From Bacteroidia bacterium (GTDB taxonomy: Bacteria > Bacteroidota > Bacteroidia > M30B66), in NCBI GenBank assembly GCA_965279035.1, contig OZ257142.1, forward strand, positions 32,001-96,000: 64,000 bases of DNA, written 5' to 3'. A program made the translations under genes and the position numbers. Each line of letters starts with the position of its first letter. Positions within the stretch are counted from its first letter, which is position 1. The notes under the pieces were generated by a model that ran no database searches, was not told the origin of the DNA, and saw only the letters and a program-made list of their open reading frames with translations. Shown in pieces: positions 7,711 to 23,924 of the stretch.

Positions 7711-9159
7711 TTATTCCACCTTTACCACTTTCTCCACCACAACCACCTCATCACCCTTTAAAATCCGGCAATAGTAAATCCCCGTTGCAAATCCGCTGAG
7801 AGATAAAGTATGTGTTCCCACTGCAGTAAATTGCTTCTGCTGCACCAAGCGCCCGGTTGCATCCAGAAGTTGAGCAGTGTACGCTGAGCCGGCAGTTTCT
7901 AAATCTATCCGCAGCCAGTCAGTTGCCGGATTGGGGTAAATGGTAACTGCATCGGGAAATGGCGCATCTTCGATTCCGACGCCACAGTTGGCAGGATCAA
8001 GACAGCCATCGGCATCCAATTTTACAACCCACGCGTTTTGTCCTCCACAACAAAAGTCATCATCGGCGGCGCCGCTTATTAACAAACCACCATCCTTGGT
8101 TTCAATAAAGTCGAGGAAGAAATCAGCCCAGTTTCCATGATCATACTCTTTCCTCCAAAGCAGATTGCCTAATGAATCTGATTTCATAATGAAACCAGCA
8201 TTGACGGTTGTATTGTTAATTCCAACTGAAACAATTCCTCCATCGGAAACTCTCCTCCCAATATAATTTGTGCTACTGTTCAACGACGGATAAGTTTTGT
8301 TATATAGAACATTTCCTTCCAAGTTCGTCATCACTACTTTTGGTCCTCCGACTTGATATTTATACCCAGAAAAGAGCAATTTATCGGTTCCAAACTGGCT
8401 CATACCTGCTTCAGTAATTTGAGGTATTTGCCATCCGTCTTGCCTTACCCCATTCTCATCAATACGAACTAGATATTCATGCAGTTCATTGATTGCAAAT
8501 GAACTGCCGGAGGTGCCGGAAATTAAATAATCTCCATTATCATAAACAATATTATTTGGAGAGTCCGCAATATCTTCATCAATCAATGCTTCAGCGAGCA
8601 GTTGTCCTTGACTATTTAGCCTTACGAAATAGCCATTCTGAGCCTCTGAATCAAAATATCCCCTAGAGGCCACTAACGCGATGTCCCCGCTTGGAGATTC
8701 AATTAAATCTTGGGGAGTATCGTAGTAAATAGAATCTCTGTGATAATAAGACCAGATTGTGTCCGCTAAATCAGGGCTTATTTTCAAAACAAAAATCTGA
8801 TTTCCTCCGGTTCCTCCCACTTTGCTTCGAGTATTAAATAACAGCAAATTTCCATCAACACTGCTAATCATTGAGCAAAAACCCGAAAAACGTCTAGACA
8901 AATCGTATTTAAAATTGTTCAACACGATGTTTCCTGAATCATCAAATGAATGCGCCCGCTGGAATCCGCCCTCTTCAACAAACAAACTGTATCCCGAACT
9001 TGCGATATAGTACTTACCGCTGTCAAGCTCAACAGCCCTAGATGCGCTGCCTGCTAAATTTGCCGTGTCGTTGTACGTTCTGGCAAATGTTGCGACCTGG
9101 CCTAAACTTGAAAGGCTAAGTATTAAATGAAAAAAAACAACAGCGAGAAAGTTTCTCAT
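7711..9159 (-). CDS. T9SS type-A secreted beta-propeller-like partner protein, cassette 4
   Basis: Signal peptide, repeated DGG/K(S/L)DxxGxLLW blade-like motifs, and CTD IYPNPA...GIYY...KVVKVE. Confidence 0.8.
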   Translation of the reverse strand: MRNFLAVVFFHLILSLSSLGQVATFARTYNDTANLAGSASRAVELDSGKYYIASSGYSLFVEEGGFQRAHSFDDSGNIVLNNFKYDLSRRFSGFCSMISSVDGNLLLFNTRSKVGGTGGNQIFVLKISPDLADTIWSYYHRDSIYYDTPQDLIESPSGDIALVASRGYFDSEAQNGYFVRLNSQGQLLAEALIDEDIADSPNNIVYDNGDYLISGTSGSSFAINELHEYLVRIDENGVRQDGWQIPQITEAGMSQFGTDKLLFSGYKYQVGGPKVVMTNLEGNVLYNKTYPSLNSSTNYIGRRVSDGGIVSVGINNTTVNAGFIMKSDSLGNLLWRKEYDHGNWADFFLDFIETKDGGLLISGAADDDFCCGGQNAWVVKLDADGCLDPANCGVGIEDAPFPDAVTIYPNPATDWLRIDLETAGSAYTAQLLDATGRLVQQKQFTAVGTHTLSLSGFATGIYYCRILKGDEVVVVEKVVKVE

Positions 9160-9635
9160 TATCTGGAAATGATTAGCCGCTGAACGCCCAACACTTCTTT
9201 ATTTTCAGCGTAAATCCGACAGAAGTAAATGCCTGCTGATAAATGGTCCAAGTGGAGATTCTCCGTGTGCTTGATTTCGCGTTTGACGAAGGATCCGCTA
9301 TGCAACGTGCGCCCGGTAATATCAATTATTTGAAAAGTGAGATTGCCAGCTTCAGCGGTACTAATGTTTAGAGTAAATATCCCTTTGTTGGGGTTGGGAT
9401 AAATGTCTACTTCAGTCTTTGCATCTTGTTTTCGTTGCGGTTTTACTTCTGCTCCTGCAAGCCTTGCCCCAGATGGTTCATCTATATAGGGATACCGATG
9501 GTAAATCGTATCGCCCCGAAGCTGCCGCGCGGCCATTGCGTAACTCTGAATACTGGACGGCACGCGGGATAAAAATTCGAGCTGTTGTTTCTGAACAGAA
9601 TCTATTTGCAGCCAGGTAAGGGAATCTTCTATCAT
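9159..9635 (-). CDS. Orphan C-terminal fragment of the giant T9SS protein (helical segment plus CTD, no signal peptide), cassette 4
   Basis: DSLTWLQID..PSSIQSYAMAARQLRGDT..YP..ARLA..IYPNPN aligns to the giant's DSLTWLTID..PSSVQQYALAVLQLRGDT..YP..ARLA..VYPNPN. TAATG overlap with the next gene. Confidence 0.75.
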   Translation of the reverse strand: MIEDSLTWLQIDSVQKQQLEFLSRVPSSIQSYAMAARQLRGDTIYHRYPYIDEPSGARLAGAEVKPQRKQDAKTEVDIYPNPNKGIFTLNISTAEAGNLTFQIIDITGRTLHSGSFVKREIKHTENLHLDHLSAGIYFCRIYAENKEVLGVQRLIISR

Positions 9636-9817
9636 GTCGAGAGTAAGGTAGATATAATCGGCTAGTTCACCTTTACCACTTTCTCCACCACAACCACCTC
9701 ATCACCGTTTAAAACCCGGCAGTAATAGATACCCGTTGCAAGTCCGCTTAGCGATAAAGTATGCGTTCCCACTACAGTAAACTGCTCCTGCTGCACCAAT
9801 CGCCCTGTTGCATCCAG
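9589..9817. repeat. 229-bp perfect direct repeat, copy 1 (copy 2 at 11540-11768)
   Basis: Base-by-base identity read at offset 1951, spanning the partner CTD end, its stop codon and the cassette start. Confidence 0.9.
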
Positions 9818-11110
9818 AAGTTGAGCCGTATACTCTGTGCCAGCAGTTTCCAAATCTATGCGCAGCCAATCAGTTGCTGGGTTGGGATAAATCGTAACAG
9901 CATCGGGGAATGGTGCATCTTCGATTCCTACGCCACAGTTGGCTGGATCTAGGCAACCATCGGCATCGAGTTTTACTACCCAAGCATTTTGTCCGCCACA
10001 GCAAAAATCATCATCAGCAGCCCCACTGATCAATAAGCCACCATCTTTCGTTTCAATAAAGTCGAGAAAGAAATCAGACAAGTTGCCGTGGTCGTATTCT
10101 TTATGCCAAAGCAGATTTCCTAATGAATCAGATTTCATAATGAAACCAGCATTAATTGTGGTCGTATTAATGCCAACTGAAACAACACCACCATCAGAAA
10201 CTTTTCGACCGATATAACTTTCATTGTTAAACAACGAAGTATAAGTCTTATTAAAAATTATATTTCCATCAAGATCGGTCATTACTAGTTTTGGTCCACC
10301 TGCTTGGTATTTATAACCTGAAAAAAGCAATTTATCTGGTCCAAACTGGCTCATTCCACCTTCTGTAATTTGAGATAATTGCCAGCCTTCTTGTCGAATT
10401 CCATTTTCATCAAGTTTTATTAAATACTCATATCCAACGTCACTTGTAAAAGCAATCCCGGCAACACCAGCTATAAGAAATCCCCCGTCGGATGCACTAA
10501 TTATATTCTTTGGGGAATCAGCTATATTTTCATTAATTAAAGTTTCATTGACAAGTTCTCCCAGAGCATTAAGTTTAATAAAATATCCATCGTGGTCTTC
10601 AGTAGTAGTAAAATAATCTCGTGAAGCTATCAATGCAATTTCACCGCTTGTTGTTTCAATTAAATCTTCTGGAGTATCATAATACAATGAGTCATGATGG
10701 TAATATGACCAAAGTGTATCTGTTAAGTCCGGGCTTAGTTTTAATACGAAGATTTGAGTACCACCTGCATCATTAATCCAACTTCGTGTATTGAACAAAA
10801 GAAGATTACCGTCATTGCTTCTTATCATCGAGCAGAAATCGAAAAAGCGCCTTGATGGAACATAACTGAAATTATCTAAGATAATATCGCCAGAATCATC
10901 AAATGAATGAACTCTCTGAAATCCACCATCTTCTACAACCAAACTAAATCCAGAGCTAGAAATATAATAACTGCCGCTATCGAGTTCAACAGGTCTAGAT
11001 GCATTTCCACCAAAATTTGCCGTGTCATTGTAAGTACGGGCAAAAGTTGGCACCTGTGCAATACTAGATATACTTAATAAAGCAAAAAAGTATGCGACAA
11101 ATTCTTTCAT
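9662..11110 (-). CDS. T9SS type-A secreted beta-propeller-like partner protein, cassette 3
   Basis: Close paralog of 7711-9159 with signal peptide and CTD. Confidence 0.8.
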   Translation of the reverse strand: MKEFVAYFFALLSISSIAQVPTFARTYNDTANFGGNASRPVELDSGSYYISSSGFSLVVEDGGFQRVHSFDDSGDIILDNFSYVPSRRFFDFCSMIRSNDGNLLLFNTRSWINDAGGTQIFVLKLSPDLTDTLWSYYHHDSLYYDTPEDLIETTSGEIALIASRDYFTTTEDHDGYFIKLNALGELVNETLINENIADSPKNIISASDGGFLIAGVAGIAFTSDVGYEYLIKLDENGIRQEGWQLSQITEGGMSQFGPDKLLFSGYKYQAGGPKLVMTDLDGNIIFNKTYTSLFNNESYIGRKVSDGGVVSVGINTTTINAGFIMKSDSLGNLLWHKEYDHGNLSDFFLDFIETKDGGLLISGAADDDFCCGGQNAWVVKLDADGCLDPANCGVGIEDAPFPDAVTIYPNPATDWLRIDLETAGTEYTAQLLDATGRLVQQEQFTVVGTHTLSLSGLATGIYYCRVLNGDEVVVVEKVVKVN

Positions 11111-11586
11111 TACTTGGAAATGATAAATCGTTGAACACCCAGCAACTCTTTATTAGAAGTATAAACCCTACAGAAATAAATACCAACTGATAAGTTATCC
11201 AACTGTATATTTTCAATGTATTTGTTTTCCCGTTTCACGAAGGATTCGATATGCAATGTGCGCCCAGTAATATCAACTATTTCAATTGTATGTCCACCTG
11301 TTGTTATGCTAGTCACATTTAGAGAAAATATGCCTTTATTCGGATTTGGATAAATGCCTATTTCAGACTTTACTTGTTTTTTTTGTTGAGGTTCAACTTG
11401 AGTTCCAGCAAGCCTTGCACCAGATGGTACATCAATGTATGGATACCGGTGGTAAATAGTATCTCCCCGGAGTTGCCTAGCTGCCATTGCGTAACTCTGA
11501 ATACTGGACGGCACCCGCGACAAAAATTCGAGTTGCTGCTTCTGAACAGAATCTATTTGCAGCCAGGTAAGGGAATCTTCTATCAT
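11110..11586 (-). CDS. Orphan C-terminal fragment of the giant T9SS protein, cassette 3
   Basis: First ~52 aa identical to 9159-9635, then a divergent CTD. TAATG overlap with the next gene. Confidence 0.75.
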   Translation of the reverse strand: MIEDSLTWLQIDSVQKQQLEFLSRVPSSIQSYAMAARQLRGDTIYHRYPYIDVPSGARLAGTQVEPQQKKQVKSEIGIYPNPNKGIFSLNVTSITTGGHTIEIVDITGRTLHIESFVKRENKYIENIQLDNLSVGIYFCRVYTSNKELLGVQRFIISK

Positions 11587-11768
11587 GTCGAGAGTAAGGT
11601 AGATATAATCGGCTAGTTCACCTTTACCACTTTCTCCACCACAACCACCTCATCACCGTTTAAAACCCGGCAGTAATAGATACCCGTTGCAAGTCCGCTT
11701 AGCGATAAAGTATGCGTTCCCACTACAGTAAACTGCTCCTGCTGCACCAATCGCCCTGTTGCATCCAG
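11540..11768. repeat. 229-bp perfect direct repeat, copy 2
   Basis: Identical to 9589-9817. Confidence 0.9.
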
Positions 11769-13076
11769 CAGTTGAGCGGTATACGATGAGCCGGCAGTTT
11801 CCAAATCTATTTGCAGCCATTCTGTTGCTGGGTTAGGATATATAGTTAATGCATCAGGGAAAGGAGCATCTTCGATTCCTACACCGCAATTGGCAGGGTC
11901 AAGACATCCGTTGGCATCAAGTTTTAGCAGCCATGAGTTCTGACCTCCATCTGCGTTGCTTTGGCTAGCGGAACCGCTTATCAAAAGTCCACCATCAGAG
12001 GTTTCGATAAAATCGCTGAAGTATTCCACAAAGTCGCCTAAGGTATATTTATAATCTTTCTGCCAGAGCAAAATTCCATCGGCGTCTGTTTTCATTATAT
12101 ACCCATTATTGTTTTCAACAAAATCTAGGTTTGTGGCCAATCCCACAGAGACTATCCCCCCATCAGCAACTTTTCTTCCGATGTAGTTGATAGATGAGGA
12201 TCCAGGATAGATGTATGTTTTATTCTGAACTAAATTTCCAGCCGTATCCAAGAGAAGGATCTTTGCTTCCCCATTTGGGTAGGAGTATCCCGATAAAATA
12301 ATCTTGTTTTCATCATATAAACTCATACCACACTCAGTAATCTGAAAATAGTCTTGGCTCCAAAGAATTTGACCTTGACTGCTTATTTTCATAAGAAAAC
12401 CGTGGAGATTTGTTGAATTAGAAGGTCCGCGGGTGCCTCCAATCAAAACAGAACCATCTGCTAGTTGGGCCAAAGACTCCAGGGCCTGAATTTCACGTTC
12501 ACGAATTATCATTTCGCTTACGAATTGCCCCTGCGAATCTAGCCGTATGATTATACCCAGCATAGAGTCGTTTTCGAGTGGGCGTCTTCTTGCTGTAATA
12601 TACACTTCACCGTTGGTGGATTCAAAAATGTCAGCAGTAGTATTAAACGCACTTGAATCTGAATTAAGATAACTCCACAAAGTATCCGATAAATCCGCAC
12701 TTATTTTCTGAACAAAAATGCGGTTCTCTGTGGTATTCCCCAATTTGCTCCTCGTACTTGCCAAAAAAAGATTCTCATTATTACTTTTTATGAGTTTACT
12801 GAAACCCGAATAAGTTCTGTTTAAATCATACTCCATCCTATTTTGAATCAACTCACCTTGTTGATCCACTTGGTAGATTCGCTGGTAACTACCTTGAGAA
12901 AGACTTAATCCTCCACCTGAGGATGCAATAGAATAAACACCATCCGGATACTCAACAGGTCTTGAACTAATGTTAGAAAGATTTAATGTGTCGCGGTAGG
13001 TTTTGTTAAATGTATTTACCTGCGCTAAAAGCGACTGAAAGGAAAAAAGTAAAGCGAGGGCGAACAGTTTTTTCAT
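11613..13076 (-). CDS. T9SS type-A secreted beta-propeller-like partner protein, cassette 2
   Basis: Close paralog of 13576-15036 with signal peptide and CTD. Confidence 0.8.
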   Translation of the reverse strand: MKKLFALALLFSFQSLLAQVNTFNKTYRDTLNLSNISSRPVEYPDGVYSIASSGGGLSLSQGSYQRIYQVDQQGELIQNRMEYDLNRTYSGFSKLIKSNNENLFLASTRSKLGNTTENRIFVQKISADLSDTLWSYLNSDSSAFNTTADIFESTNGEVYITARRRPLENDSMLGIIIRLDSQGQFVSEMIIREREIQALESLAQLADGSVLIGGTRGPSNSTNLHGFLMKISSQGQILWSQDYFQITECGMSLYDENKIILSGYSYPNGEAKILLLDTAGNLVQNKTYIYPGSSSINYIGRKVADGGIVSVGLATNLDFVENNNGYIMKTDADGILLWQKDYKYTLGDFVEYFSDFIETSDGGLLISGSASQSNADGGQNSWLLKLDANGCLDPANCGVGIEDAPFPDALTIYPNPATEWLQIDLETAGSSYTAQLLDATGRLVQQEQFTVVGTHTLSLSGLATGIYYCRVLNGDEVVVVEKVVKVN

Positions 13077-13549
13077 CGCGCCAATGTAATACGTTGCAAA
13101 GCAATTACCCCTTTGTCCTCTCCACGCAATTCAACTAAATACAGCCCATCAACAAGATCTGTGATTTCTATAGATGACCGAATCTGTTTGGCACCACCTG
13201 GGAGCTTTCCAGATTTTAACTGGCGGCCTGTGAGATCAAATATTTTCCATTCAATCTGTTCTTCTTTTTCGAGCGTGAGTTCCAAGGTGAACGTGCCGGA
13301 GTTAGGGTTGGGATAAATCCGCACGACGTTTTTCTGCCCGGTTTTCTTCGGTGTGGGTTTTATCTGTGACGCAAGGCGGGGAGATGTTGTTGATTCAAGG
13401 TCCGGATATCGGTGGTAAATCGTATCACCGCGCAATGAGCGTGCTGCAAGCGCATAACTCTGAATAATTGATTGCTCGCGCGAAAGATTTTCCAGGCGTA
13501 TTACCTGTACAGAGTCCAACTGCATCCAGGAGAGGGTATCTTCTTGCAT
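13073..13549 (-). CDS. Orphan C-terminal fragment of the giant T9SS protein, cassette 2
   Basis: Near-identical, gapless copy (offset 1960) of 15033-15509. ATGA overlap with its partner. Confidence 0.75.
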   Translation of the reverse strand: MQEDTLSWMQLDSVQVIRLENLSREQSIIQSYALAARSLRGDTIYHRYPDLESTTSPRLASQIKPTPKKTGQKNVVRIYPNPNSGTFTLELTLEKEEQIEWKIFDLTGRQLKSGKLPGGAKQIRSSIEITDLVDGLYLVELRGEDKGVIALQRITLAR

Positions 13550-13575
13550 ATCCAGGTAAAGGTCGGTATAATCGG

Positions 13576-15036
13576 CTAGTTCACCTTCACCACTTTCTCC
13601 ACCACAACCACCTCGTCACCCTTTAAAACACGGCAATAGTAAATCCCCGTTGCTAGTCCGCTTAGCGACAAGGTATGCGTTCCCACAACAGTAAACTGTT
13701 CCTGCTGCACCAAACGACCCGTTGCATCCAGCAGTTGACCGGTATACGCTGAGCCGGCTGTTTCCAAATCTATACGTAGCCAGTCGGTTGCCGGGTTCGG
13801 ATAAATAGTAACTGCATCAGGAAACGGCGCATCTTCGATTCCTACTCCGCAATTAGAAGGGTCAAGACAGCCATCGGCATCAAGTTTTAGCAGCCAGGAG
13901 TTCTGACCACCATCTGCGTTGCTTTGGCTAGCGGAACCACTTATCAAAAGGCCACCATCTGAAGTTTCGATGAAATCCGTTAAGTATTCCACAAAGTCGC
14001 CTGAAGTATATTTGTAATTTTTCTGCCAGAGCAAATTTCCATTTGGGTCGGTTTTCATAATATACCCATTATTATTATCAACGAAATCCAGGTTTGTGGC
14101 CAATCCGACCGAAACAATTCCGCCATCAGCAACTTTTCTTCCGATATAATTAATGGCAGAAAATCCCGGATAGACATAGGTTTTATTTTGAACTAAATTT
14201 CCAGAGGTATCTAAAAGAAGCATTTTGACGGTGCCGCTTGTGGTATTGTATCCTGATAAGATAACCTTGCCATCATCATATAAACTCATTCGTCCTTCTG
14301 TGATTTGTGGATAATTAAAATCCCATATAACTTCACCAAAGGAATTCACCTTCATCAGGAACCCTTGAATGTTGCCAGCATCGATTCTACGAGCTCCGCC
14401 GATTAATAGATTGCCATCCGACAATTGAACCAAACTATACGGAGATTGCTTTTTGTATTGCCTAAATACTGCTTGAGTTAAGAATTGACCCTGTGCCGTT
14501 AAATGAATAAAAACAGCAAGCATGGAATCGGAGTCAAAAAATGCTCTGTTTGCTGTGAGATAAACGCTGCCATCCGCAGCCTCTAGTAGATCTTCCGTTG
14601 TATCAAAAAAGGTCGAATCAGAATGAAAATAACTCCACAATGTATCTGATAAGTCGGCACTTATTTTCTGCACAAAAATTCTATTCCCGCCTGTGCTTCC
14701 CGCCAAACTCCTCGTGCTGGCCAAAAAGAGATCATTGCTGTTCGAGTGAATCAGTTGGCTTGCTCCCTGATATCTTCTGGAAATATCATATTCCATTCGA
14801 TTCTGGATCAACTCACCCTGATCATTGACTTGGTAGATGCGTTGGTAACCACCTTCAGCAAGACTCAATCCTCCGCCTGCCGTTGCAATACTGTAAATAC
14901 CTGGAGGGTCCTCTACTGGCCTTGAACTGATGTTGGAAAGGACAAGGGTATCCCTAAACGTTTTGTTGAACGTGTTCACCTGCGCTATTAACGAATGAAA
15001 GGAGACAAGTAAGGCGAAGGAGAAAAGGTTTTTCAT
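13576..15036 (-). CDS. T9SS type-A secreted beta-propeller-like partner protein, cassette 1
   Basis: Signal peptide, blade-like repeats, GCLDPSNC linker and CTD. Confidence 0.8.
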   Translation of the reverse strand: MKNLFSFALLVSFHSLIAQVNTFNKTFRDTLVLSNISSRPVEDPPGIYSIATAGGGLSLAEGGYQRIYQVNDQGELIQNRMEYDISRRYQGASQLIHSNSNDLFLASTRSLAGSTGGNRIFVQKISADLSDTLWSYFHSDSTFFDTTEDLLEAADGSVYLTANRAFFDSDSMLAVFIHLTAQGQFLTQAVFRQYKKQSPYSLVQLSDGNLLIGGARRIDAGNIQGFLMKVNSFGEVIWDFNYPQITEGRMSLYDDGKVILSGYNTTSGTVKMLLLDTSGNLVQNKTYVYPGFSAINYIGRKVADGGIVSVGLATNLDFVDNNNGYIMKTDPNGNLLWQKNYKYTSGDFVEYLTDFIETSDGGLLISGSASQSNADGGQNSWLLKLDADGCLDPSNCGVGIEDAPFPDAVTIYPNPATDWLRIDLETAGSAYTGQLLDATGRLVQQEQFTVVGTHTLSLSGLATGIYYCRVLKGDEVVVVEKVVKVN

Positions 15037-15656
15037 CGCGCCAGTGTAATGCGTTGCACGTCAATTACCCCTTTGTCTTCGCCACGCAATTCAACTAAAT
15101 ACAGCCCATCAACAAGATCTGTGATTTCGATTGCTGAGCGAATCTGTTTTGAGCCACCTGAAAGCGCACCTGATTTTAACTGGCGGCCTGTGAGATCAAA
15201 TATTTTCCATTCAATCTGTTCTTCTTTTTCGAGCGTGAGTTCCAAGGTGAATGAGCCGGAGTTAGGGTTGGGATAAATCCGCACGACGTTTTTCTGCCCG
15301 GTTTTTTTCGGGGTGGGTTTTATCTGTGACGCAAGGCGGGGAGATGTTGTTGATTCAAGGTCCGGATACCGGTGGTAAATCGTATCACCGCGCAATGAGC
15401 GCGCTGCAAGCGCATAACTCTGAATGATCGACTCCTCTTGCGATAATTGCTCCAGTCGTAGCACCTGCAGGGAGTCGAGTTGCATCCAGGAGAGGGTATC
15501 TTCTTGCATATCCAGGTAAAGATCGGTATAATCGGCAAACAGGCTGTCATTGCGTGTGCTGAGCGTCAATGAATCTAACCAGCGTCGGGCATCTGCCAGG
15601 CTATTTGTATTGGTTAATTTAAAGCCCGGCATCTCATCACCGATAAGCATGCTCAC
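15033..15656 (-). CDS. Orphan C-terminal fragment of the giant T9SS protein, cassette 1 (longer, 207 aa)
   Basis: LDSLTLSTRNDSLFADY aligns with the giant's LDSITLSTLDDSLFVDY. No signal peptide; overlaps both neighbours by 4 nt. Confidence 0.75.
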   Translation of the reverse strand: MSMLIGDEMPGFKLTNTNSLADARRWLDSLTLSTRNDSLFADYTDLYLDMQEDTLSWMQLDSLQVLRLEQLSQEESIIQSYALAARSLRGDTIYHRYPDLESTTSPRLASQIKPTPKKTGQKNVVRIYPNPNSGSFTLELTLEKEEQIEWKIFDLTGRQLKSGALSGGSKQIRSAIEITDLVDGLYLVELRGEDKGVIDVQRITLAR

Positions 15657-17119
15657 CGTGCAATAACAACCCTTTCCGTCACACTTTTCCCATCCTTCAA
15701 CGTAAACTTCGCCAGATACAAACCCACCGGCAAATGGCTCACCTGAATTGCTTCCAAGGGAGCAGTTAGTTTTGTGTTCATCACCCGCTGACCTGCAATA
15801 GAAAATAATTCCAGGGCCACCGCTTGCGTTGTGTTTTGCAATTTAAAGCTTAGCCAATCATTGGCAGGGTTGGGGAAAATGGAAACACCAAGTTTATTAG
15901 CTTCCACACTTTCCAAACCAACCCAGCAGTCGGGTTCCAGGCATCCCATTGAATCCAGTTTGACTATCCATAGGTTCTGACCACCAGCTCCTGGGTCAGT
16001 GGCTGAACCATCAATTAAAAGACCTCCATCAGAAGTTTCAAGCACATCAGTGAAAAAGTCTGTATTGGAATTGTAATTATATCTTCGAAACCATTGAAGA
16101 TCTCCAGAATGGTCCGCAAGAGAAATGAAACCGGCGTTATCTGCATCAATCAACCCAATCGAGATGATTTTACCATTGGAATTTCGCCTTGAGTAATATT
16201 GATCTATTCCATCAGCTTCAAAATCGTTTAGTTTATCCCATAATACAATCCCGCTTGTATCGACTTTAATTGTGCGTGTAAAGTGATTTGACAAATTCGA
16301 TGGAGTGCCAGATAGTAAATATTCTCCATTAGAGTATGGTGAAACCCGCAAATTATAATGATTAGGATATTCATTATGATCAATGAGATTTCCTAAAAGA
16401 TTTAATTTATATACTACTCCATCGTATTGGTTGCCATCGGAATATCCGCTACCACCAATATAAATATTGTTGTTGATAAGAGTTGCACTTAGAAAATATA
16501 AGTTAGCACCATTTTCATAGATTTTGAAATCAAGTGAATCACCTTCATTATTTAGTTTTAAAAAGAATCCATCAAATTCATTTGCCTCCAAGCTATCTGG
16601 ATAAACTCTTGAACCAATAATAATTATAGATTGATCAGATTCGGAAATAAGTATATCAGCAATCGCATCAACATAACTATTTTGTGGAAACGTATATTTC
16701 CATATGGTATCCAACTCAGGTGTGAGTTTTGCGATTTCTAAGTTTGCATATGTAACGGAACTAACCAAATTCACATTAACTTTAGAATAGGCTGAAAACA
16801 AATTTATTCCATCCGTTGCAAGTGCACCTGACGGAATATAACGGCCCATTGTATCGTAATTCATTTTACGAAAAACGATTTCTCCATCTTCTGTAATTCT
16901 TGTAACCATATTATACCCTTTTAGACCATCCATACCAAACCCAGAAGATTGTATGAAATAATCTTCGTCTAATAATACTGCTCTTGATGATAACGAGGCA
17001 TAATTTAGAGTATCATTTAATGTAAAACTAAATGTGGTTATTCCTTGAGCAGAACTTTTTAAAAATCCTACATAAATAAAAATGAGAAGAAGAATTAACC
17101 GTAACGTCATTACTTTCAA
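15653..17119 (-). CDS. T9SS type-A secreted beta-propeller-like partner protein adjacent to the giant gene (start TTG 17119 or ATG 17110)
   Basis: Signal peptide; ETSDGGLLIDGSA..GGQNLWIVKLDSMGCLEPDC shared with the cassette partners; CTD IFPNPA. Confidence 0.8.
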   Translation of the reverse strand: MKVMTLRLILLLIFIYVGFLKSSAQGITTFSFTLNDTLNYASLSSRAVLLDEDYFIQSSGFGMDGLKGYNMVTRITEDGEIVFRKMNYDTMGRYIPSGALATDGINLFSAYSKVNVNLVSSVTYANLEIAKLTPELDTIWKYTFPQNSYVDAIADILISESDQSIIIIGSRVYPDSLEANEFDGFFLKLNNEGDSLDFKIYENGANLYFLSATLINNNIYIGGSGYSDGNQYDGVVYKLNLLGNLIDHNEYPNHYNLRVSPYSNGEYLLSGTPSNLSNHFTRTIKVDTSGIVLWDKLNDFEADGIDQYYSRRNSNGKIISIGLIDADNAGFISLADHSGDLQWFRRYNYNSNTDFFTDVLETSDGGLLIDGSATDPGAGGQNLWIVKLDSMGCLEPDCWVGLESVEANKLGVSIFPNPANDWLSFKLQNTTQAVALELFSIAGQRVMNTKLTAPLEAIQVSHLPVGLYLAKFTLKDGKSVTERVVIAR

Positions 17120-20100
17120 TGAATTAATGAAATTTTATGGTGTCCTAAAACTCTTCCATCTTTATCAAGTATGTTAAGTAAGTAAATACCATTGGATAGA
17201 TCATTACACGTTAACTCGATTAATTGATTACGCTCTGTTAGTTGATTTATCTGTCGAATCAAACGACCGGAAAGGTCTACAAGACTTATTATAAGATTTC
17301 CTTCATAGTCATTAACTTGTAGAGTAAATTTACCATCATTGGGATTAGGATAAACACGTGTTAAGATATTTTTACTCTTTCGATTGTATTTTGCTTCATT
17401 AGCCAACCTAGCTGAAGGTGGAAAAGCATTTTCCGGATAATGCTCAATGGTCGTATCACCGCGTAGTTGCAGAACAGCTAATGCATACTGTTGTACAGAC
17501 GAAGGAATAGAGGCCATGTTTCGAATGTCTTCTAATATTGTAGTATCTATGGTAAGCCAAGTAAGGCTATCGCGTAATAAGTTCAGATACATTTTATGGT
17601 AATCAACAAACAAGCTATCATCTAGAGTTGATAAAGTTATGGAATCGAGAACAGCTTCAGCTTGATCCAAGCTGTCGCTACCCAGATAAGTACTGAAAAG
17701 GCTTCTTTCAAAACCGGTACCAAGGCTATCTTTGTATAAGGCAGCCAGCTCATACCATTCATCTCGTTCTAACAAACTTGATTCAATTTTACTAATAGTA
17801 GTTAGCCATTCACCTCGAAAATGATGAGCTGCCCTTTTATAGGTTTCATGTGTTTGAACATAGGCGTTTTCTTTTTGCAATCCAAGCAAGCTGTCACGAG
17901 TAGCTTGATAGTAATTAGTATCTGCTAAGAGAACTCTCAATTCATTCAGTACTTTTTGTGTAGCAGGAAGGTTTAGCAGCATAAAATTGATTAACTCATT
18001 ATTACTAAATAAGTTTTCCAGACGTAAAGCAGTTACAAGCACACTATCGCTTAAAGGTGAATATAATGTTAATACAATTGATAAATCAGCTGAAGATTGA
18101 GTTGTGTCAGAAAGTATACCCAATAGGCTATCGGTTTGCATTCCATCTAAGTTTTCAAGTATTGTTTGCTTTTGTAATTCCATACTATCTGACATGAACT
18201 TAAATTGTCTGCGTTCAGCATTTAGACTGATAATATTAAGAGCTCCAGTTCCAGATGGGCAAGGATTTGACAATCCAGATCCGCAAATAGTTGTTGAGCC
18301 TGACTCAGAAATGGAACTGAATACAGGAGTTTCGACATTAATTGGTCTTGCATAATAATACCAATCTGGTGTTTGATTATTGGGGGCCCATATATGTTTA
18401 ACACCAACACCTTGATCATTAAAAATGTTTCCGGGACGGTATTGTGCAGGACCACAACCAATGCCTTGGTTATTAAATACACCCGACATACTTAACGGAT
18501 TGATATGCCAGTCATAATTATTATTGGTAAAGTCGTTACATTTTAAAAATAAATATGGGTTATTATATTCTGATTGAAAACCACGCTGTAGGTTAGTAAA
18601 ATCGTTACGTTGTATAAGCATATTTATGCCAGAACTTTGAGGCTGAAGACCTCTAGTAATTAGTCCCCAATTATATGGTTCGGCTGAACCAGATCCAATG
18701 AAATTATTTAATTGAACCTTGTTAGCAGTGCGGTAATCATAAAAATAGATACCATATGGATCAGGAATAACAGATGTATTGCCATCGGAATCTGGTATGT
18801 TAAAATCGTTATTGATATAATTATCACCACGAGCATTCTCAGAATATATTCCCATTCGACAATTGTCAAACAAAGACCCTGAACTATAAACATTATACCC
18901 GATTGATGTATTTGTAACTCGGGTAATAATTCCACGGGTTAATCCAATAAATCGGTTCCGAAGCGCATTATCGGCATTCAGATCAGATTGGTCGTCATTA
19001 TTTGGATTAGTTGAAAGAACTCTGACTTGTGCATCATACAAGGCAATTCCTTGAGTTCTGTCGTGAGACAGAAATGGGTATTCAGTGGTGGTACAACTTT
19101 CTTTTATTGAAAAGTCTCCATCATTTAGAAAAATATTATCTCTAAATATAACACCTTTTATTTCCCATGCAGATACAAACATTTGTGAGGCCAACCAGTA
19201 ATTTGTTTGACTATCGAAATAATCAGGATTTTTCAAATGATCATCGCAAATGAATAAACAGTTGGTGAATTTACTTATACTTGGAAAAGTATAAGGATGA
19301 AAAGATACTGACCGCCAGTTGTTCCTGAAAGTACTATTGGATGCTACTACAATTCCTCCTGTTACCCCCCCATACATATTGTCACCTGCATCACTCATAA
19401 AAATACCTTCTTCAGCATTTTCTATTACTGCATGATTTTTCATTTCAACTACACCTTGAACAGTATTTGCTAATGTTCCTTGTGGCTGCGAAGCAATACC
19501 CATTAATCTAATTCCTCTCCACATAGTACAGGAACTAGTTAGAGTTCCGCCATCTAAAATCAGTTTACCCCCAGGCTGAATAAGTATCATAGCATCATCA
19601 GGAAATTCTACTTTACAAGTTATAGTTAACGTGCGTCCTGGATAGACAATTATATCATTGTAAACTCTAATATCAAGTTCCCAAGTTTCGTTCATATTTA
19701 TACCAATAGGAGTACTAGAATAAGGACAATCGTCTATAAAGCGTTTCAAATTAGTAATAGATGCTGCTTTATGAATTTTTCCAACTTGATTAGGTGAATA
19801 ATATAAGTAACTCTGATAATTACCGCCCATCACATTATTAGTTGTCCTTGTATAACATGGGTCATTAGGATCATTTATATAAGGATCAACAACTAATGCA
19901 CCAGGTGGACATCCTGAAGGATGAACTATTTGTCCATGAGGGCAATTCAGATCATTTCCATCAATTACTCCAAATAAATCTAGTAACCCATCAAAATCAG
20001 AATCTTGATCTTCGATAGTACAATAAATTCCATTTTGATATAAATGTACTAAGTCTAACATGTGAGCAATTTCATGTGCAACATGTCTAGTGAAAGCCCA

Positions 20101-23100
20101 TACAAAACCTTCAAGTCCATTTAATTGATATGATTCAAAAGCTTTTCTAGAAAATGCATACATTGGATCATTTTGATTGCAAGATGGAGGTGTGGCATTA
20201 CCATATGCACCGCCAACATTATTAACTAAAAAGTAATTAAAGTCATCTTCTATTTCGCATCCAAACTCAGCAATAGCTTGTTGGTAGAGATTTAAACGAA
20301 GATTAGAACTTGAGTAATCAGCATTAAATTGTGTATTTGTTACAGGCATAAATAGAATTCGTTCAATATAAAAATCAATTCGTGCTGAATTCAATTCATT
20401 AATTGGAAGTATAATTGGATCTGACGGATTTCCATTTCCAGTAAAAAGCGATTTTATTGACCATGCTTGATTTGTTTCAAAAACTTGTCGAATTGCATTA
20501 ATATGGCTAGGAATATCCTCAAAATTCCCAGGTAAATTCGGAGCGGAATTTTGCACAACTATAACATTAATTCCAATTCTTTTGATAGGAATAAATGTAC
20601 TTGAATTGTCACTAGGCTGATAGAATTTAAATTTGTAATAACGTTCGCTGTTTTCTGGAAATACATATGAGGGATCATTAATATATTGAGAACAACCTCC
20701 ACATGCTAAACGGTCGGTTGCCATATAGTTACAAACAACGGTGTTGCTCTCTGTAGATTGAGTTGGAAGTGAAATTTTTGACTCACAACCTGTATTTTCA
20801 GTTATGACAGCATTAATTGTATCTCCTAAAACAGCATTATTTAATATTAAAATACTGTCTTTCCCAACATAAAGTAATTGATTGTTTAGACTAAATTGAT
20901 ATGATTTCTGATTAGGTGAGAATCTTACTACTTGAGCTTTTTGCAAAAATGTATCAACTCCGGTTACATAAGAAGGAGTAAGAAAACACTTACCAACCAA
21001 ATTTAATATAGTAGGAAAAGAATTAATGCTTGTTACCGCTTGAACATTTCCAATTGTGCTATTTCCTGAATAGGTGCCATTGCCTTTATCTTTCCATTGG
21101 CTGCCATCCCAGATGGTAATTTTCGCATCAACAGGGTTAGAACTATAGCACGGATTATTACTCCAACCCAATTTGGCATTTGTTGTTCCTGTTCCTGCTG
21201 TGCGGTCTAATTTCCAATAACCACAACGATTTACAAAACCTAATGTGGAATCTTTGCTCGATCTTGAATAGTTGCTGTTTGGGTCTGTTCCAAAATATGA
21301 AGCTTTAAACGTTGTGTTGCTTGAAACTGAATCGATACTTATTGGTGCATACTGCCCTCCACCACCAGTCGGAAATGTAAATTCGGTGATTCCCATTTTG
21401 CTGATTGCTCCTTCTACATAGGAAGAATCACTGCCTTGTGATGCGATGGCAAAATATTCGAGAAACAGCGAATTGGTATCACTTATTTGTACAATGCCTT
21501 TGCTTAGATTGAGCGCACTTAGAATATGAAGAGGGACATCGATGATAAGCTGCCCATTGGGCTTTTCAACGTTTAATGTTGCCATTGAAAAATCATTAAA
21601 GGTGCCCGTAGATTCAATGTGTTGGTCATCCTCTCCAACAAATCGCATAGCACTCCCTTGATTTAAATCGGGAGATGTGCTGCCTCTGAATTCAAGGTTT
21701 TTGTAAATATCAGAACTACCATCACTTGCTGTCATCACTTTTCCATCACCTGTACATTCGATAATTAAATCATCCCAAAATTGATTGTTAGAAGCATCAT
21801 AATTTAAAAGGAAATACCCATCCGAACTGGTTTTAAAATGAGCCTTTCCATAAAACACCATGCTTCCACCACCTTGATCATAGCCACTTCCGGTTTTGTG
21901 TAATAGGGTATTTCCGTGATAAAAACCTCCATTGGTTACGATGGATGGAAGTTCCACGTTAAGTGGTCCTTGAATTTGACATTGACTCAATACAAGGCGC
22001 GAATTATCCGTTCCTGTAAAAGTTATGCTATCTGTATTGGTTGATCGAAAACCCAATAGATCCAATTCGGAATTTGCAAATGATGTAGTATAAATAGTTC
22101 CGCTACTGCCTTGTTTTATCATACCCAATACAACCAAACCACCCGTACAATTTAAATTAATATTTCCTTGAACGATATTGGTATCGGTTGAATATTCCCC
22201 TAATGCTATACGTCCAGCAGATGAGCTAATTTTTAAATCACCACCAATTGATAAAAATCCATTGCTTGCAATATCGATGGAGCCCTCATCAGTATTAATC
22301 AAGCTGAGATCGGAACGAAATGAGCAAGAATCGTCTAATGCAGTTAAAAAGGAACCAGTGCCAGAATTGGTTAACGAAAACGGAGCGTTGGTTATAATTG
22401 GTCCGAAACGAGGCTGATTTGATTCCGGTCCTATTTTAACAAAACTGGTTGAATCATTGAATGTTGAATTGCCTATGTAAATGGATTGAGCTGAGCAATT
22501 TACTTTAGAGTTAAATATACTACCTTGATCAATATAGAGGGAATTACCTTTTTGATTATCATCCATTTGGATAGATAAGGAATCATCTAGCGTAACTCCA
22601 CGAAACCTTAATTCACCAACAAACCAACCAGTCTCAGAAAGACTTATTGGGGCTCCAGAATGAAAATGAGCATTTCGTGTAAACTCAAGTGCATTTGCTC
22701 CATTGTTCCCAATGAGAACTGGAGCATAAAAATCGACCGATGCCGAATCAGCGCCATCGCAGAAATAGATGGACGAATTTGACTTCATATCGATTCGGCA
22801 AAATCCATTGATCTGTGTGTTAACAGAGTTATGAGCAAAGTGAAAAACTCCAGGATTTAAATATACACCATCATAAGAAATTATTTGTAAACTATCTTGA
22901 AAGGTATCGGGTGCATCATAACCAAAATACAAATCGGCAGCACCTTCATTTGAAATCTTCAATGATTTTTCAAACGTGTTTCCACCGCAATAACTTGGAG
23001 AACTGCTACTAACGGCAATTGAGCTTGCTTTTTTAAAAACACAATTTGAAATAGTAGAAGTCCCAATTAATGCTAAAATAGTGACATCCAATTGTGAATT

Positions 23101-23448
23101 CGTTAATTGAATAGATTGATAAGTTAATGGTCCAGTTATTTGAAGATCTCCATGTTTAATGCTTGCTTCATTCATGGCAAACCGGCCATTGATTGTCAAA
23201 AGATATCCTCCTAAATCGAGTTCAGCACCACTCGTTAGTATTATTGTATAACAATAGGTATTTCCGGATAATACTGGTTTATTGCTAGAGGAATGAATAT
23301 AAATTGTATCTGCCCAACTGGGTGATGAAGGGCTCCAATTAGCAGCAGTACTCCAATTTGTGCTAACAGTACCTGTCCACGTTCTTGACGACGCAAAAGC
23401 ACATTGGTTCAAAATTAAAATGAATAGCAGGAGAAGGAAATTTTTCAT
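17116..23448 (-). CDS. Giant T9SS-secreted multidomain protein: beta-helix-like N-terminus, metzincin (M43/pappalysin-like) domain, right-handed beta-helix, helical segment, CTD
   Basis: Signal peptide from ATG 23448 (MKNFLLLLFILILNQCAFA), HEIAHMLDLVH at 20044-20076, Met-turn-like NNVMGG, and VYPNPN...GIYLL CTD. Confidence 0.75.
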   Translation of the reverse strand: MKNFLLLLFILILNQCAFASSRTWTGTVSTNWSTAANWSPSSPSWADTIYIHSSSNKPVLSGNTYCYTIILTSGAELDLGGYLLTINGRFAMNEASIKHGDLQITGPLTYQSIQLTNSQLDVTILALIGTSTISNCVFKKASSIAVSSSSPSYCGGNTFEKSLKISNEGAADLYFGYDAPDTFQDSLQIISYDGVYLNPGVFHFAHNSVNTQINGFCRIDMKSNSSIYFCDGADSASVDFYAPVLIGNNGANALEFTRNAHFHSGAPISLSETGWFVGELRFRGVTLDDSLSIQMDDNQKGNSLYIDQGSIFNSKVNCSAQSIYIGNSTFNDSTSFVKIGPESNQPRFGPIITNAPFSLTNSGTGSFLTALDDSCSFRSDLSLINTDEGSIDIASNGFLSIGGDLKISSSAGRIALGEYSTDTNIVQGNINLNCTGGLVVLGMIKQGSSGTIYTTSFANSELDLLGFRSTNTDSITFTGTDNSRLVLSQCQIQGPLNVELPSIVTNGGFYHGNTLLHKTGSGYDQGGGSMVFYGKAHFKTSSDGYFLLNYDASNNQFWDDLIIECTGDGKVMTASDGSSDIYKNLEFRGSTSPDLNQGSAMRFVGEDDQHIESTGTFNDFSMATLNVEKPNGQLIIDVPLHILSALNLSKGIVQISDTNSLFLEYFAIASQGSDSSYVEGAISKMGITEFTFPTGGGGQYAPISIDSVSSNTTFKASYFGTDPNSNYSRSSKDSTLGFVNRCGYWKLDRTAGTGTTNAKLGWSNNPCYSSNPVDAKITIWDGSQWKDKGNGTYSGNSTIGNVQAVTSINSFPTILNLVGKCFLTPSYVTGVDTFLQKAQVVRFSPNQKSYQFSLNNQLLYVGKDSILILNNAVLGDTINAVITENTGCESKISLPTQSTESNTVVCNYMATDRLACGGCSQYINDPSYVFPENSERYYKFKFYQPSDNSSTFIPIKRIGINVIVVQNSAPNLPGNFEDIPSHINAIRQVFETNQAWSIKSLFTGNGNPSDPIILPINELNSARIDFYIERILFMPVTNTQFNADYSSSNLRLNLYQQAIAEFGCEIEDDFNYFLVNNVGGAYGNATPPSCNQNDPMYAFSRKAFESYQLNGLEGFVWAFTRHVAHEIAHMLDLVHLYQNGIYCTIEDQDSDFDGLLDLFGVIDGNDLNCPHGQIVHPSGCPPGALVVDPYINDPNDPCYTRTTNNVMGGNYQSYLYYSPNQVGKIHKAASITNLKRFIDDCPYSSTPIGINMNETWELDIRVYNDIIVYPGRTLTITCKVEFPDDAMILIQPGGKLILDGGTLTSSCTMWRGIRLMGIASQPQGTLANTVQGVVEMKNHAVIENAEEGIFMSDAGDNMYGGVTGGIVVASNSTFRNNWRSVSFHPYTFPSISKFTNCLFICDDHLKNPDYFDSQTNYWLASQMFVSAWEIKGVIFRDNIFLNDGDFSIKESCTTTEYPFLSHDRTQGIALYDAQVRVLSTNPNNDDQSDLNADNALRNRFIGLTRGIITRVTNTSIGYNVYSSGSLFDNCRMGIYSENARGDNYINNDFNIPDSDGNTSVIPDPYGIYFYDYRTANKVQLNNFIGSGSAEPYNWGLITRGLQPQSSGINMLIQRNDFTNLQRGFQSEYNNPYLFLKCNDFTNNNYDWHINPLSMSGVFNNQGIGCGPAQYRPGNIFNDQGVGVKHIWAPNNQTPDWYYYARPINVETPVFSSISESGSTTICGSGLSNPCPSGTGALNIISLNAERRQFKFMSDSMELQKQTILENLDGMQTDSLLGILSDTTQSSADLSIVLTLYSPLSDSVLVTALRLENLFSNNELINFMLLNLPATQKVLNELRVLLADTNYYQATRDSLLGLQKENAYVQTHETYKRAAHHFRGEWLTTISKIESSLLERDEWYELAALYKDSLGTGFERSLFSTYLGSDSLDQAEAVLDSITLSTLDDSLFVDYHKMYLNLLRDSLTWLTIDTTILEDIRNMASIPSSVQQYALAVLQLRGDTTIEHYPENAFPPSARLANEAKYNRKSKNILTRVYPNPNDGKFTLQVNDYEGNLIISLVDLSGRLIRQINQLTERNQLIELTCNDLSNGIYLLNILDKDGRVLGHHKISLIH

Positions 23449-23483
23449 GGGATAATTTTTTTGAAATAATGGATATGGAATTT

Positions 23484-23924
23484 TCAATATGCTTTGCCTG
23501 AATAATGAGCTACAATTGTTCCCGCAGCATTTTTTGCATCAATGCTTAAAAAACAATCTCGTCGGTTTACCCAATTACCAATTCCGGCAGAGCAAATGAT
23601 TCCTTTACGCTTGAACCATATGATAGATGAAATAATGCTAAGACTATTAAAAGAAAAGGATTGATCATAAAAATCAGATCCATTGAGTGAGCTTCCTAAT
23701 CTAATTTGTATGGTCGAAATATTGGAAGTATCAGCTACTTCGAAAGCCAAGGTCTTGGTTTCGGTTACAATCAACGAATCGCCACCAAACGAGGAAGAAA
23801 CAGTGGCTGTATCTGTAGTCATCAAGGGCGTCTTCACATGTATTCTAGAGATTGAATTCGGTTGTGCAGCAAGTGTGAATGCGGATAAACAGGCGAAGAG
23901 ATAAAGAATAGATACTTTATTCAT
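23484..23924 (-). CDS. Small exported hypothetical protein, first gene of the T9SS locus
   Basis: Signal peptide, 146 aa, beta-rich, abuts the giant gene. Confidence 0.6.
   Translation of the reverse strand: MNKVSILYLFACLSAFTLAAQPNSISRIHVKTPLMTTDTATVSSSFGGDSLIVTETKTLAFEVADTSNISTIQIRLGSSLNGSDFYDQSFSFNSLSIISSIIWFKRKGIICSAGIGNWVNRRDCFLSIDAKNAAGTIVAHYSGKAY

Follow-up and report, generated by a model that had tools for sequence, protein, structure and literature searches.

The operon and its giant gene

The window (the whole stretch of DNA analysed, 64,000 nucleotides) carries eleven intact open reading frames between positions 7711 and 23924, all on the minus strand, in the order small gene, giant (G0), partner P0 and then four cassettes, CT1/P1, CT2/P2, CT3/P3 and CT4/P4. 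Neighbouring frames of the array overlap or sit 26 nt apart, and the cassette unit, taken from a DY motif to the partner stop, measures 1960, 1963, 1951 and 1951 bp. All 11 frames, with their order, strand and 1951–1963 bp period, lie where an earlier sequence-only reading had placed them. Matches to PF18962/TIGR04183 are above cut-off in the giant, in P0–P4 and in CT1–4, each, in keeping with the earlier description of giant and partners as type IX cargo. In order of transcription the features are:

23484..23924, minus strand: small exported protein gene, 146 aa, first in the operon; no family
17116..23487, minus strand: G0, the giant type IX cargo, 2123 aa when started at TTG or 2110 aa at the ATG at 23448
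21088..21390, minus strand: conserved block, about aa 700–800 of G0; identity peak among giants with different passengers
19708..20640, minus strand: Pappalysin/M43-like metzincin domain, zinc motif at about 20044–20076
18268..19707, minus strand: predicted right-handed parallel beta-helix, pectin-lyase-like fold (aa 1440–1740 modelled)
17461..18234, minus strand: predicted 14-helix domain, aa 1752–2009 (structure model)
15653..17119, minus strand: cognate partner P0, with signal peptide, propeller and sorting signal; 30–32% to P1–4
15033..15656, minus strand: stump CT1, a frame of 207 aa whose GTG start overlaps the stop of P0; giant homology from about codon 17
13576..15036, minus strand: orphan partner P1, predicted 7-bladed beta-propeller (pLDDT 83, pTM 0.85)
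13073..13575, minus strand: stump CT2, ORF from ATG 13549; homology begins at the base after the P1 stop
11613..13076, minus strand: orphan partner P2, 74% to P1
11540..11770 (ends approximate), minus strand: 229-bp exact repeat (longest common substring 229) spanning the P2 end, the junction and the CT3 start
11110..11612, minus strand: stump CT3, same junction as CT2
9662..11110, minus strand: orphan partner P3, 51–52% to P1/2
9159..9661, minus strand: stump CT4, 76% to CT3
7711..9159, minus strand: orphan partner P4, last gene of the array, 75% to P3

All cassettes are present at single-copy read depth. The contigs unique to P4, to P2, to P1 and to the giant carry 0 other letters and stand at flank depth in 4/4 runs (743, 708, 745 and 748, respectively, in run X1, with the flank at 794), the runs coming from 2 samples of 1 study, possibly the source of the assembly. 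Because of these uniform letters at flank depth a mixture of strain variants, which the sequence-only reading had raised against its own proposal, is excluded as the origin of the array; the order of the cassettes rests on the source assembly, and the depth-check contigs cover the array in pieces. The proteins of the array are also recorded on a contig of 4,200,666 bases. A second, diverged CT3/P3-like copy occurs in the same runs. The 30 loose letters at 11580 match only the stretch of this copy equivalent to 11581–11610, and cluster look-ups at 90% returned no full-length giant member for it. Promoter and terminator scans gave hits at chance (58 versus 57.4 and 11 versus 11.8, respectively).

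The small exported protein had no family match in a domain search; its homologues (28–36%) precede stalk-bearing giants at five other loci (L081, L090, L092, L093 and L098), and the small gene is also found ahead of giants without a protease. G0 itself consists, in order, of a signal peptide, a stalk, the conserved block, the metzincin, the beta-helix, the helical domain and the sorting signal, the signal peptides of giant and partners being called by eye from the sequence. The conserved block is 57–80% identical to its counterparts in P0005, P0006, P0007, P0009 and P0123, versus 17–45% in most other bins, and the paralogue P0004 follows G0 at 86–99% up to aa 800 and then drops to 17–39%. This block between stalk and passenger is likely to serve as the 5' recombination anchor.

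The metzincin domain bears the zinc motif HEIAHMLDLVH, with Asp at the Gly position of HExxHxxGxxH, and a Met-turn-like NNVMG. A 5-sequence profile of the domain has mirolysin as its best match (E 0.0025), and PF05572 matches 4/5 members, the G0 domain alone scoring 13 bits, under the cut-off of 23. The best structural match of the beta-helix is AlgG (Z 18.2, rmsd 3.4, 227 aligned; many ties), and the fold is like that of glycan lyases, tailspikes and adhesins. With Foldseek the C-terminal module of the giant had no match at E <= 0.001, nor was a toxin fold or conserved hydrophobic hairpin seen in it, the module being covered by Foldseek and its beta-helix by a wide structural search. A colicin-type pore former was considered and set aside as unsupported (top 19-residue hydropathy 1.42 in the giant and <1.5 in 29/30 rows). 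A PDB sequence search with the whole giant recovered a sorting-signal match only. The passengers of the giants are hydrolases, one of which, in L087, looks glycosidase-like by eye.

Stumps and partners

The sequence-only reading held that CT1–4 copy the tail of the giant. This did not hold up: protein identity to G0 is 34–37%, and the longest exact DNA matches are 13, 13, 9 and 10 nt. CT-like tails of other full-length giants match the CTs better than G0 does (up to 66%), namely P0007 over the whole CT (40–46%) and P0123/P0083 (66%) and P0129 (65%) over the helical part, so that full-length homologues with such tails, as the earlier reading had envisaged, do exist. By their sequences, CT1–4 are stumps of different, lost giants and not copies of G0.

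Of the 14-helix domain the stumps retain no more than the last 3–4 helices, followed by the type IX sorting signal, and they are therefore not toxin tips. Since they have neither a signal peptide nor a complete domain, they are presumably not exported effectors either. CT1 and CT2 are 92% identical, and CT3 is 41% identical to both. The stumps vary less than the adjoining partners: the 92% between CT1 and CT2 compares with 71% between the adjoining propellers, and the first 66 codons of CT3 and CT4 differ by 18 synonymous changes and 1 non-synonymous change, with the adjoining propellers at 74%. Neutral decay, which the earlier reading had set against its proposal, is not the pattern of the CT frames in the window (dN/dS 0.14 and 0.16).

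The variable unit of the array is the partner propeller and not the CT. Matches to the propeller fold are generic (best CylK, TM 0.71, 18% identity; weak neighbours include lectins), and for this reason a function drawn from them was rejected. Atlas matches, beside these, are unnamed clusters at 0.87–0.91. Top-face loops of the propeller are more variable than bottom-face loops (identity 0.26 versus 0.39, 17 sequences, p 2e-6), a contrast not significant within the window (P1/P2 p 0.23, P3/P4 p 0.15), and no conserved repeated sugar-binding motif was found on the top face. The dN/dS is 0.03–0.16 in the sorting signals of P1–4 and 0.11 in the P1/P2 propeller; such low values may date from a time when the pieces sat on intact giants.

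Recurrence, pairing and signs of recombination

Stump-partner cassettes occur at ten other loci (L001, L002, L004, L005, L006, L007, L083, L084, L089 and L099), and a fragment plus partner lies downstream of a full-length giant in the window, L005, L007, L083 and L099. The tail profile matched in 5/24, 9/400, 2/3, 9/146 and 3/24 genomes, from four non-overlapping orders, and the cassettes occur across four or more orders of Bacteroidia. The array is thus recurrent, and the earlier view that recombination shaped it is supported. A scan with a pattern from the window-only tail alignment confirmed 0/22 candidates in genome contigs and 0/68 in viral contigs, and a metagenome scan with the tail pattern confirmed 2/33. 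The search of representatives listed 44 proteins and missed known relatives such as P0007, so that absences from it mean little. Among the propeller loci, 16 of 40 were inspected, and the distant ones of these showed no tail or giant match.

Tails of the stump types are carried by full-length giants in other genomes. The L004 stump is 69% identical to the L008 giant over the helical part and 85% over the sorting signal. That of L001 equals the tail of P0130 at 126/127 residues past the ARALRGDT region and at 30/54 before it. L005 reads small gene, stalk, other passenger, other partner, partner-signal remnant, stump, P, and is by its sequence a heterotypic displacement. This locus, together with stump types found on full-length giants elsewhere, favours the earlier suggestion that the array records successive replacements. 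G002, an incomplete MAG whose giant may be unassembled, carries 4 P genes along with 2 stumps, and its two tail matches are short frames; at two of its loci partners are placed behind a new leader.

P directly follows 14/15 long frames found through the tail profile. Giants of the SBBP type are followed by a different partner (2/2) and those of the P0005 type by a third (2/2), making three giant module types and three partner families among the loci. The pairing is not strict: in L101–L103 the tails, and in L006 the stump, stand ahead of a member of another partner family. Tail and partner divergence are correlated (Mantel rho 0.58, 13 pairs), a figure confounded by kinship.

P also stands behind eight giants that lack an intact zinc motif (L087, L088, L099 and L106–L110). 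Because P goes with the beta-helix/helical module whether the protease is there or not, a role as protease inhibitor, one of those named by the sequence-only reading, is improbable. The model here would be Tannerella forsythia, where pairs of protease and inhibitor genes are known and where the KLIKK proteases, as described in the cited reports, leave by type IX and join near-identical C-terminal domains to differing catalytic domains (PMC4404884, PMC9890683). The likeness lies in this, in a pappalysin-family member (mirolysin, which the domain of the giant resembles) and in a dedicated neighbouring partner. The potempins are described as lipoproteins of 98–132 residues encoded upstream (PMC9890683), unlike P, which lies downstream, is a propeller of 480 residues and carries a type IX signal itself. 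A dedicated inhibitor of this kind is extremely improbable.

Alternatively, P might act at the surface as a lectin or as the head of an adhesin, by itself or docked onto the giant, the same history then serving to widen the range of bound particles, algae or prey, or to vary the surface against phage. This would suit a protein that bears both a signal peptide and a type IX signal, the lectins among its weak structural neighbours, the glycan-binding fold of the beta-helix and the hydrolase passengers. A stand-alone lectin leaves unexplained why P stands after one module in 14/15 loci, with overlapping stop and start; an obligate subunit leaves unexplained the retention of P1–4, which share just 30–32% with P0 and whose stumps share 34–37% with the resident giant. 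That no conserved repeated sugar-binding motif was seen on the top face also counts against it. We consider this use of the array somewhat unlikely.

Partner sorting signals are 87–99% identical within a genome, versus 40–74% for the propellers, and the likeness extends to unrelated partner families (85% in L002, 71% in L098). The sorting-signal DNA is homogenised within genomes and likely serves as a recombination handle. The same junction recurs inside arrays (window x3, L002 x2, L083 x2, L004/L006), and between loci the breakpoints differ, with no fixed motif. The 229-bp repeat, which has its second exact copy where P3 ends and CT4 starts (about 9590–9820), reads as a recent recombination or conversion tract. 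At TGA-stop junctions a start codon overlaps the stop in the stump frame (4/4 independent cases), an outcome that random frames would give in about 1 of 81 cases; at the remaining 4 independent junctions starts lie at +4 to +30.

Such near-identical signal DNA, spread over a large gene family, could by itself drive unequal crossing-over, and stumps and extra partners would then be transient debris with no selected role. The homogenised signals point this way, and so does the decay seen at several loci: the stump is frameshifted in L002 and only 36 aa long in L079, stump and P are both broken in L080, P is split in L083, and of some cassettes in L004, L005 and L006 the signal is all that is left. 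Arrays are also rare, with the tail in just 9/400 genomes. Against it, 4/4 stumps and 4/4 orphan partners are intact in the window, the P1–P3 signals with their array-specific junction have diverged (dS 0.22–0.73) under a dN/dS of 0.03–0.16, the TGA junctions keep their in-frame starts, and partners at two G002 loci stand behind a new leader. A mere by-product is in our view unlikely.

Stump arms match the preceding giant tail at 81% over 527 bp in L083, 91% over 782 bp in L089 and 83% over 850 bp in L099, and by sequence these are long enough for recombination, that is, reloading onto the giant. No such arm to the resident giant exists in the window (longest 9–13 nt) or in L007 (10 nt). Tail swapping by recombination, as first proposed, could take place at those three loci and not for CT1–4; within a single species no fusion event was seen. 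The related proposal, that the CT is a polymorphic effector tip swapped onto the giant with its cognate partner as in CdiA/Rhs orphans, draws on the layout, on these arms and on the one apparent crossover at the ARALRGDT region (L001 versus P0130). It is very unlikely: the supposed business end is a partial helical domain plus a signal that, as described for type IX cargo, is cleaved on export (PMC5053529), the breakpoints vary by locus, and the CTs are less variable than the partners.

Proposed displacement, possible immunity and known systems

We propose, with a probability of roughly 0.45, that the operon is a giant with its own propeller partner followed by four partner alleles, each behind the stump of a different giant, which arose by sequential displacement, the old partners being kept as would-be neutralisers of related giants from neighbouring cells. 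The genetic history within this proposal (mosaic giants, displacement and cassette shuffling) is itself quite probable. Stalk, conserved block, variable passenger, beta-helix, helical domain and sorting signal make up each giant as a mosaic, and every C-terminal module type has its own partner family behind it. An incoming giant-partner module would find its anchor in homology to either the conserved block or the helical tail, its 3' end joining within the tail of the old giant, most of which would be deleted, leaving stump and old partner behind. Partner sorting-signal DNA and stump would then act as homology blocks through which cassettes are duplicated, converted and replaced, patterns seen in the arrays, and cassettes could be reloaded where a stump matches the resident giant (L083, L089 and L099, not the window). 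Stump frames presumably persist as recombination arms and as translation couplers for the next partner.

The immunity-like role, in which the partner, at the cell surface, would use its variable top face to bind the beta-helix/helical module, is tentative, at a little under even odds. Immunity proteins are usually intracellular or periplasmic; P differs in being itself type IX cargo, which we count against the role. The glycan-related beta-helix and hydrolase passengers fit foraging equally well. It is possible, though doubtful, that the whole forms a type IX polymorphic antagonism system, in which stalked giants, their passengers exchangeable, attack neighbours through the beta-helix/helical module, surface propellers in expressed arrays confer immunity, sorting-signal DNA is the universal handle and stumps are couplers or reloading arms. 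If the partner is an immunity protein, immunity would act outside the cell. Arrays of orphan cassettes count as a hallmark of interbacterial conflict; here both proteins of the pair leave the cell, by type IX export. The loci supply testable cognate pairs for a common, little-studied gene couple of free-living Bacteroidia, and sorting-signal DNA homogenised within genomes and common to unrelated cargo suggests a general route for shuffling Bacteroidota surface proteins.

We found no published description of type IX stump-partner arrays in the literature searched, and they are apparently an undescribed variant of orphan-immunity arrays. The sequence-only reading had pointed to CdiA, Rhs and MafB, and the repeated fragment and partner downstream of a full-length gene do agree. 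As reported, orphans of cdiA-CT/cdiI and rhs-CT/rhsI are fragments with variable upstream homology, each followed by its partner, some without homology to the resident gene, and recombinational reloading is possible (PMC3150448, PMC3967940). The likeness fails at the fragment, which in those systems is described as a complete toxin domain after a fixed VENN motif, with mutually unrelated partners (PMC3150448, PMC3967940); here it is an incomplete structural tail with unfixed breakpoints, and the partners are for the most part alleles from a single propeller family.

The type VII immunity genes esaG and tipC are described as tandem non-identical paralogues in which conserved blocks (gene end plus intergenic region) surround variable centres, gained and lost by recombination and retained in strains without the toxin (PMC9484751). 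They guard against proven toxins; the conserved blocks here, known from sequence, are the type IX signal and a giant-gene stump. In the type VI arrays of Vibrio cholerae, according to the cited account, a new module replaces the effector and pushes the old partner, sometimes with the effector 3' end, downstream, homology-facilitated illegitimate recombination is proposed, and retained partners resemble the cognate partners of other strains (PMC5361080). The likeness to our locus is the proposed sequential displacement with retained partners. As in the type VI and type VII orphan arrays, the retained partners here resemble cognate partners elsewhere and are under purifying selection, the case of partners without an effector being one incomplete genome. 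Unlike the type VI arrays, the present ones use type IX export, have export signals on both proteins and no known toxin domain, and carry a stump ahead of every retained partner, with sorting-signal DNA as the common handle.

Array layout and integrity

The array reads from 23924 to 7711 on the minus strand.

Genes of the array in order of transcription
Minus strand, first gene: small exported gene, 146 aa
17116..23487, minus strand: giant type IX surface-protein gene, 2123 aa
15653..17119, minus strand: P0, cognate partner of the giant, 488 aa
Minus strand, each ahead of one partner: stumps CT1, CT2, CT3 and CT4 (C-terminal fragments of giant genes), 207, 158, 158 and 158 aa
Minus strand, one per stump: orphan partners P1–P4, 482–487 aa each

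Neighbouring genes overlap or are separated by 26 nt, and the stump-partner cassettes measure 1960, 1963, 1951 and 1951 bp, in agreement with the period of 1951–1963 bp proposed in the sequence-only reading. A type IX type A signal ends 10 of the 11 array proteins. Sequence unique to P4, P2, P1 and the giant occurs with zero differences and at flank-level depth in four of four public runs (from two samples of one study, possibly the array's own source), and the array proteins are on record within one contig of 4,200,666 bases. The array is therefore the content of one genome, and a mis-assembly of strain variants is not borne out, although no single contig from the public runs bridges it entirely.

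In a 24-genome Bacteroidia family that also contains the closest partner genes, 4 of 5 genomes carry an orthologue 73–77% identical to the flanking helicase. A Fic-family gene (4812–5933; GC 0.32 in bin 5001–6000) adjoins this DEAD-box helicase. Upstream of the operon, on the same strand, a 332-aa gene (24473–25471) without Pfam or NCBIfam match appears, by eye, to be a regulator with a helix-turn-helix at its N-terminus. Short imperfect repeats occur ahead of the operon at 24210–24410; since several other contigs end or loop there, this element is present elsewhere in the genome. The leucyl-tRNA synthetase (47220–50636) carries an in-frame insertion of a DUF559 (endonuclease-like) domain at residues about 333–434.

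Stumps, partners and the giant

The stumps are neither the resident giant's tail (its helical end plus sorting signal) nor a toxin tip. Far from copying the giant's last 160–200 residues, as had been proposed, CT1–4 are only 34–37% identical to them. Tails of their type do occur, as anticipated, on full-length or long giants elsewhere (P0007, 40–46%; P0083/P0123, 66%; P0129, 65%, helical part), which they fit better. CT1 and CT2 are 92% identical, CT3 and CT4 76%, and the two types 41–44%. Exact DNA matches to the giant run to 9–13 nt at most, too little for homologous recombination. The stumps also differ from the giant's tail in GC3 (0.34–0.49 vs. 0.24). CT2–4 start mid-helix at the first base past the upstream stop, with an identical junction in all three, and CT1 about 20 residues earlier; 3–4 of 14 helices are retained, without a signal peptide. 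The stumps bear the mark of purifying selection (dN/dS 0.14 and 0.16; over codons 1–66 of CT3/CT4, 18 synonymous vs. 1 non-synonymous change), perhaps a legacy of intact donor giants. The public runs also contain, at comparable depth, a second, diverged CT3/P3-like copy (of 9801–11580) that differs at the end of the partner signal.

The partner is the variable unit of the cassettes. P1 is predicted to be a seven-bladed propeller of 27 strands (pLDDT 83, pTM 0.85). Propeller identity is 71% for P1/P2, 74% for P3/P4, 44–47% between the two pairs and, against P0, about 30%, with blades 3–4 the most variable in P1/P2 (44–45%). Among 17 family sequences, top-face loops (faces assigned from strand order) are more variable than the bottom face (identity 0.26 vs. 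0.39, p 2e-6), a difference not significant inside the two close pairs. The sorting signals of P1–4 are 87–95% identical; within one genome such signals are 87–99% identical regardless of propeller clade, and are common to unrelated partner families. An exact 229-bp repeat at the P2/CT3 and P3/CT4 junctions is the trace of a recent exchange. The P0 signal (15653–15920) is itself a swapped piece, judging from its GC3 (0.47 vs. 0.24 in the P0 propeller) and its 58–63% protein identity to signals of the L002 and L079 partners. TAnnTTTG, the Bacteroidota -7 promoter consensus, occurs where P1, P2 and P3 encode their signals (13772, 11809 and 9858, minus strand) and is altered in P4, the only partner without a cassette behind it; a count of seven in 17.3 kb is close to chance expectation, and a -33 element was looked for and not found.

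The giant is a mosaic. A probable pappalysin-like metzincin occupies residues 950–1260, with mirolysin as its best solved match (E 0.0025), and the model of residues 1440–2035 (pLDDT 81, pTM 0.56) has a parallel beta-helix and then 14 helices. Structures resembling the beta-helix, many of them tied in score (Z up to 18.2), are pectin-lyase-like lyases, tailspikes and adhesins; the helical part, hardly reached by the wide structure search, gave no significant match. Relatives combine the same parts differently: P0004 is 86–99% identical through residue 800 and beyond that unrelated except for a distant tail, P0005/6 and P0009/10 join the giant's stalk to other passengers, and P0002 and P0123 carry its metzincin-to-tail half behind other N-termini. 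Identity among these mosaics peaks at residues 700–800 (57–80%), which we infer to be the boundary where passengers are swapped. P0004 (2162 aa), recorded on a contig equal in length to the array's and at similar read depth, joins this stalk to another passenger and tail, and in the public runs the upstream region, small gene and stalk (21240–24400) occur a second time at similar depth.

Recurrence and partner choice

Type IX stump-partner arrays are real and recurrent. Tail-profile matches were found in 5 of 24 genomes of the window's likely family, which makes up the entire order, in 9 of 400 sampled Bacteroidia, and in 2/3, 9/146 and 3/24 genomes of three further groups; by the match lists they span four orders. 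The proposed layout recurs at several loci.

Cassette-bearing loci in other genomes (P, propeller partner; CT, stump)
L083: giant-P-CT-P-CT-P(split)
L099: small gene-giant-P-CT-P
L007: giant tail-P-CT-P
L089: tail-P-CT-P
L084: CT-P-CT-other partner
L002: other propeller-CT-P-CT(frameshifted)
L004: P-P-CT-P
L006: P-CT-other partner
L005: giant of another type-its partner-remnant-CT-P
L001: lone CT-P

At L008 and at most loci in the 146-genome order, giant and P occur without a stump. Stumps range from 36 to about 390 residues, so that a fixed boundary motif is lacking. L004 (9690–9940) and L006 (9700–9940), two loci of one genome, share a short signal-peptide leader at their start, joined to the final 45 codons of a giant tail of P0007/P0084 type, with different P alleles behind it. 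Other giant types own tandem partner alleles too: three, one of them split, behind an SBBP giant (L090, 7034–11391), and two behind a P0004-type tail (L098, 12967–15143), the second with a P1–4-type signal.

The tail profile picked up 15 long frames, of which 14 have P directly behind them and one (L103) another family; eight giants without an intact zinc motif still precede P (L087, L088, L099, L106–L110). P thus tracks the beta-helix/helical module rather than the protease, and is probably no protease inhibitor. Second and third partner families stand behind SBBP-passenger (2/2) and P0005-type giants (2/2). Tail and propeller similarity are correlated (rho 0.58, 13 pairs), as kinship alone can yield. 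The incomplete genome G002 holds four P genes and two stumps, with the same short leader at two P loci and no long tail-bearing frame found with the queries used.

Proposed displacement and comparison with known systems

We propose that giant-partner modules would be displaced one after another, the old partners being retained in an immunity-like role; overall we put this at roughly 45%. Of its parts, the sequential history is quite probable, and immunity-like function is somewhat less than an even bet. Tight cognate pairing and retention without a cognate giant are traits of immunity genes. A stand-alone lectin would account for the retention only, and an obligate subunit for the pairing only. 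The immunity-like reading is weakened by the lack of any toxin fold found in the giant, the glycan type of its beta-helix, the hydrolase passengers and the decayed cassettes at several loci. Of the two routes first envisaged, a record of successive replacements is favoured, but swapping of the resident giant's tail by CT1–4 is not, given the 9–13-nt matches.

Reloading onto a resident giant looks feasible at L083, L089 and L099, where stump and preceding tail share 81% DNA identity over 527 bp, 91% over 782 bp and 83% over 850 bp, respectively. Past the conserved ARALRGDT region the L001 stump and the P0130 tail agree at 126/127 residues, but before it at 30/54, suggesting a crossover there. 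Intact stump frames may aid translation of the next partner: the stump start codon overlaps the stop at 4/4 independent TGA-stop junctions (+4 to +30 at the other four), and the stumps of L079, L080 and L002 (the last at a contig end), none of which has a visible intact P behind it, are broken.

Type IX-linked polymorphic toxin domains are mentioned in passing in 10.64898/2026.09.22.753552 and PMC12419801, whose available portions mention neither the giant-partner pair nor these arrays. The literature searched, supplements being outside its scope, held no description of them, in keeping with the initial impression of an undescribed system. The layout matches that of cdiA/rhs orphans (PMC3150448), but a CdiA-type orphan is a complete variable toxin domain, which the stumps are not. 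In their proposed working the arrays would resemble the displacement arrays of V. cholerae (PMC5361080) and esaG/tipC strings (PMC9484751).
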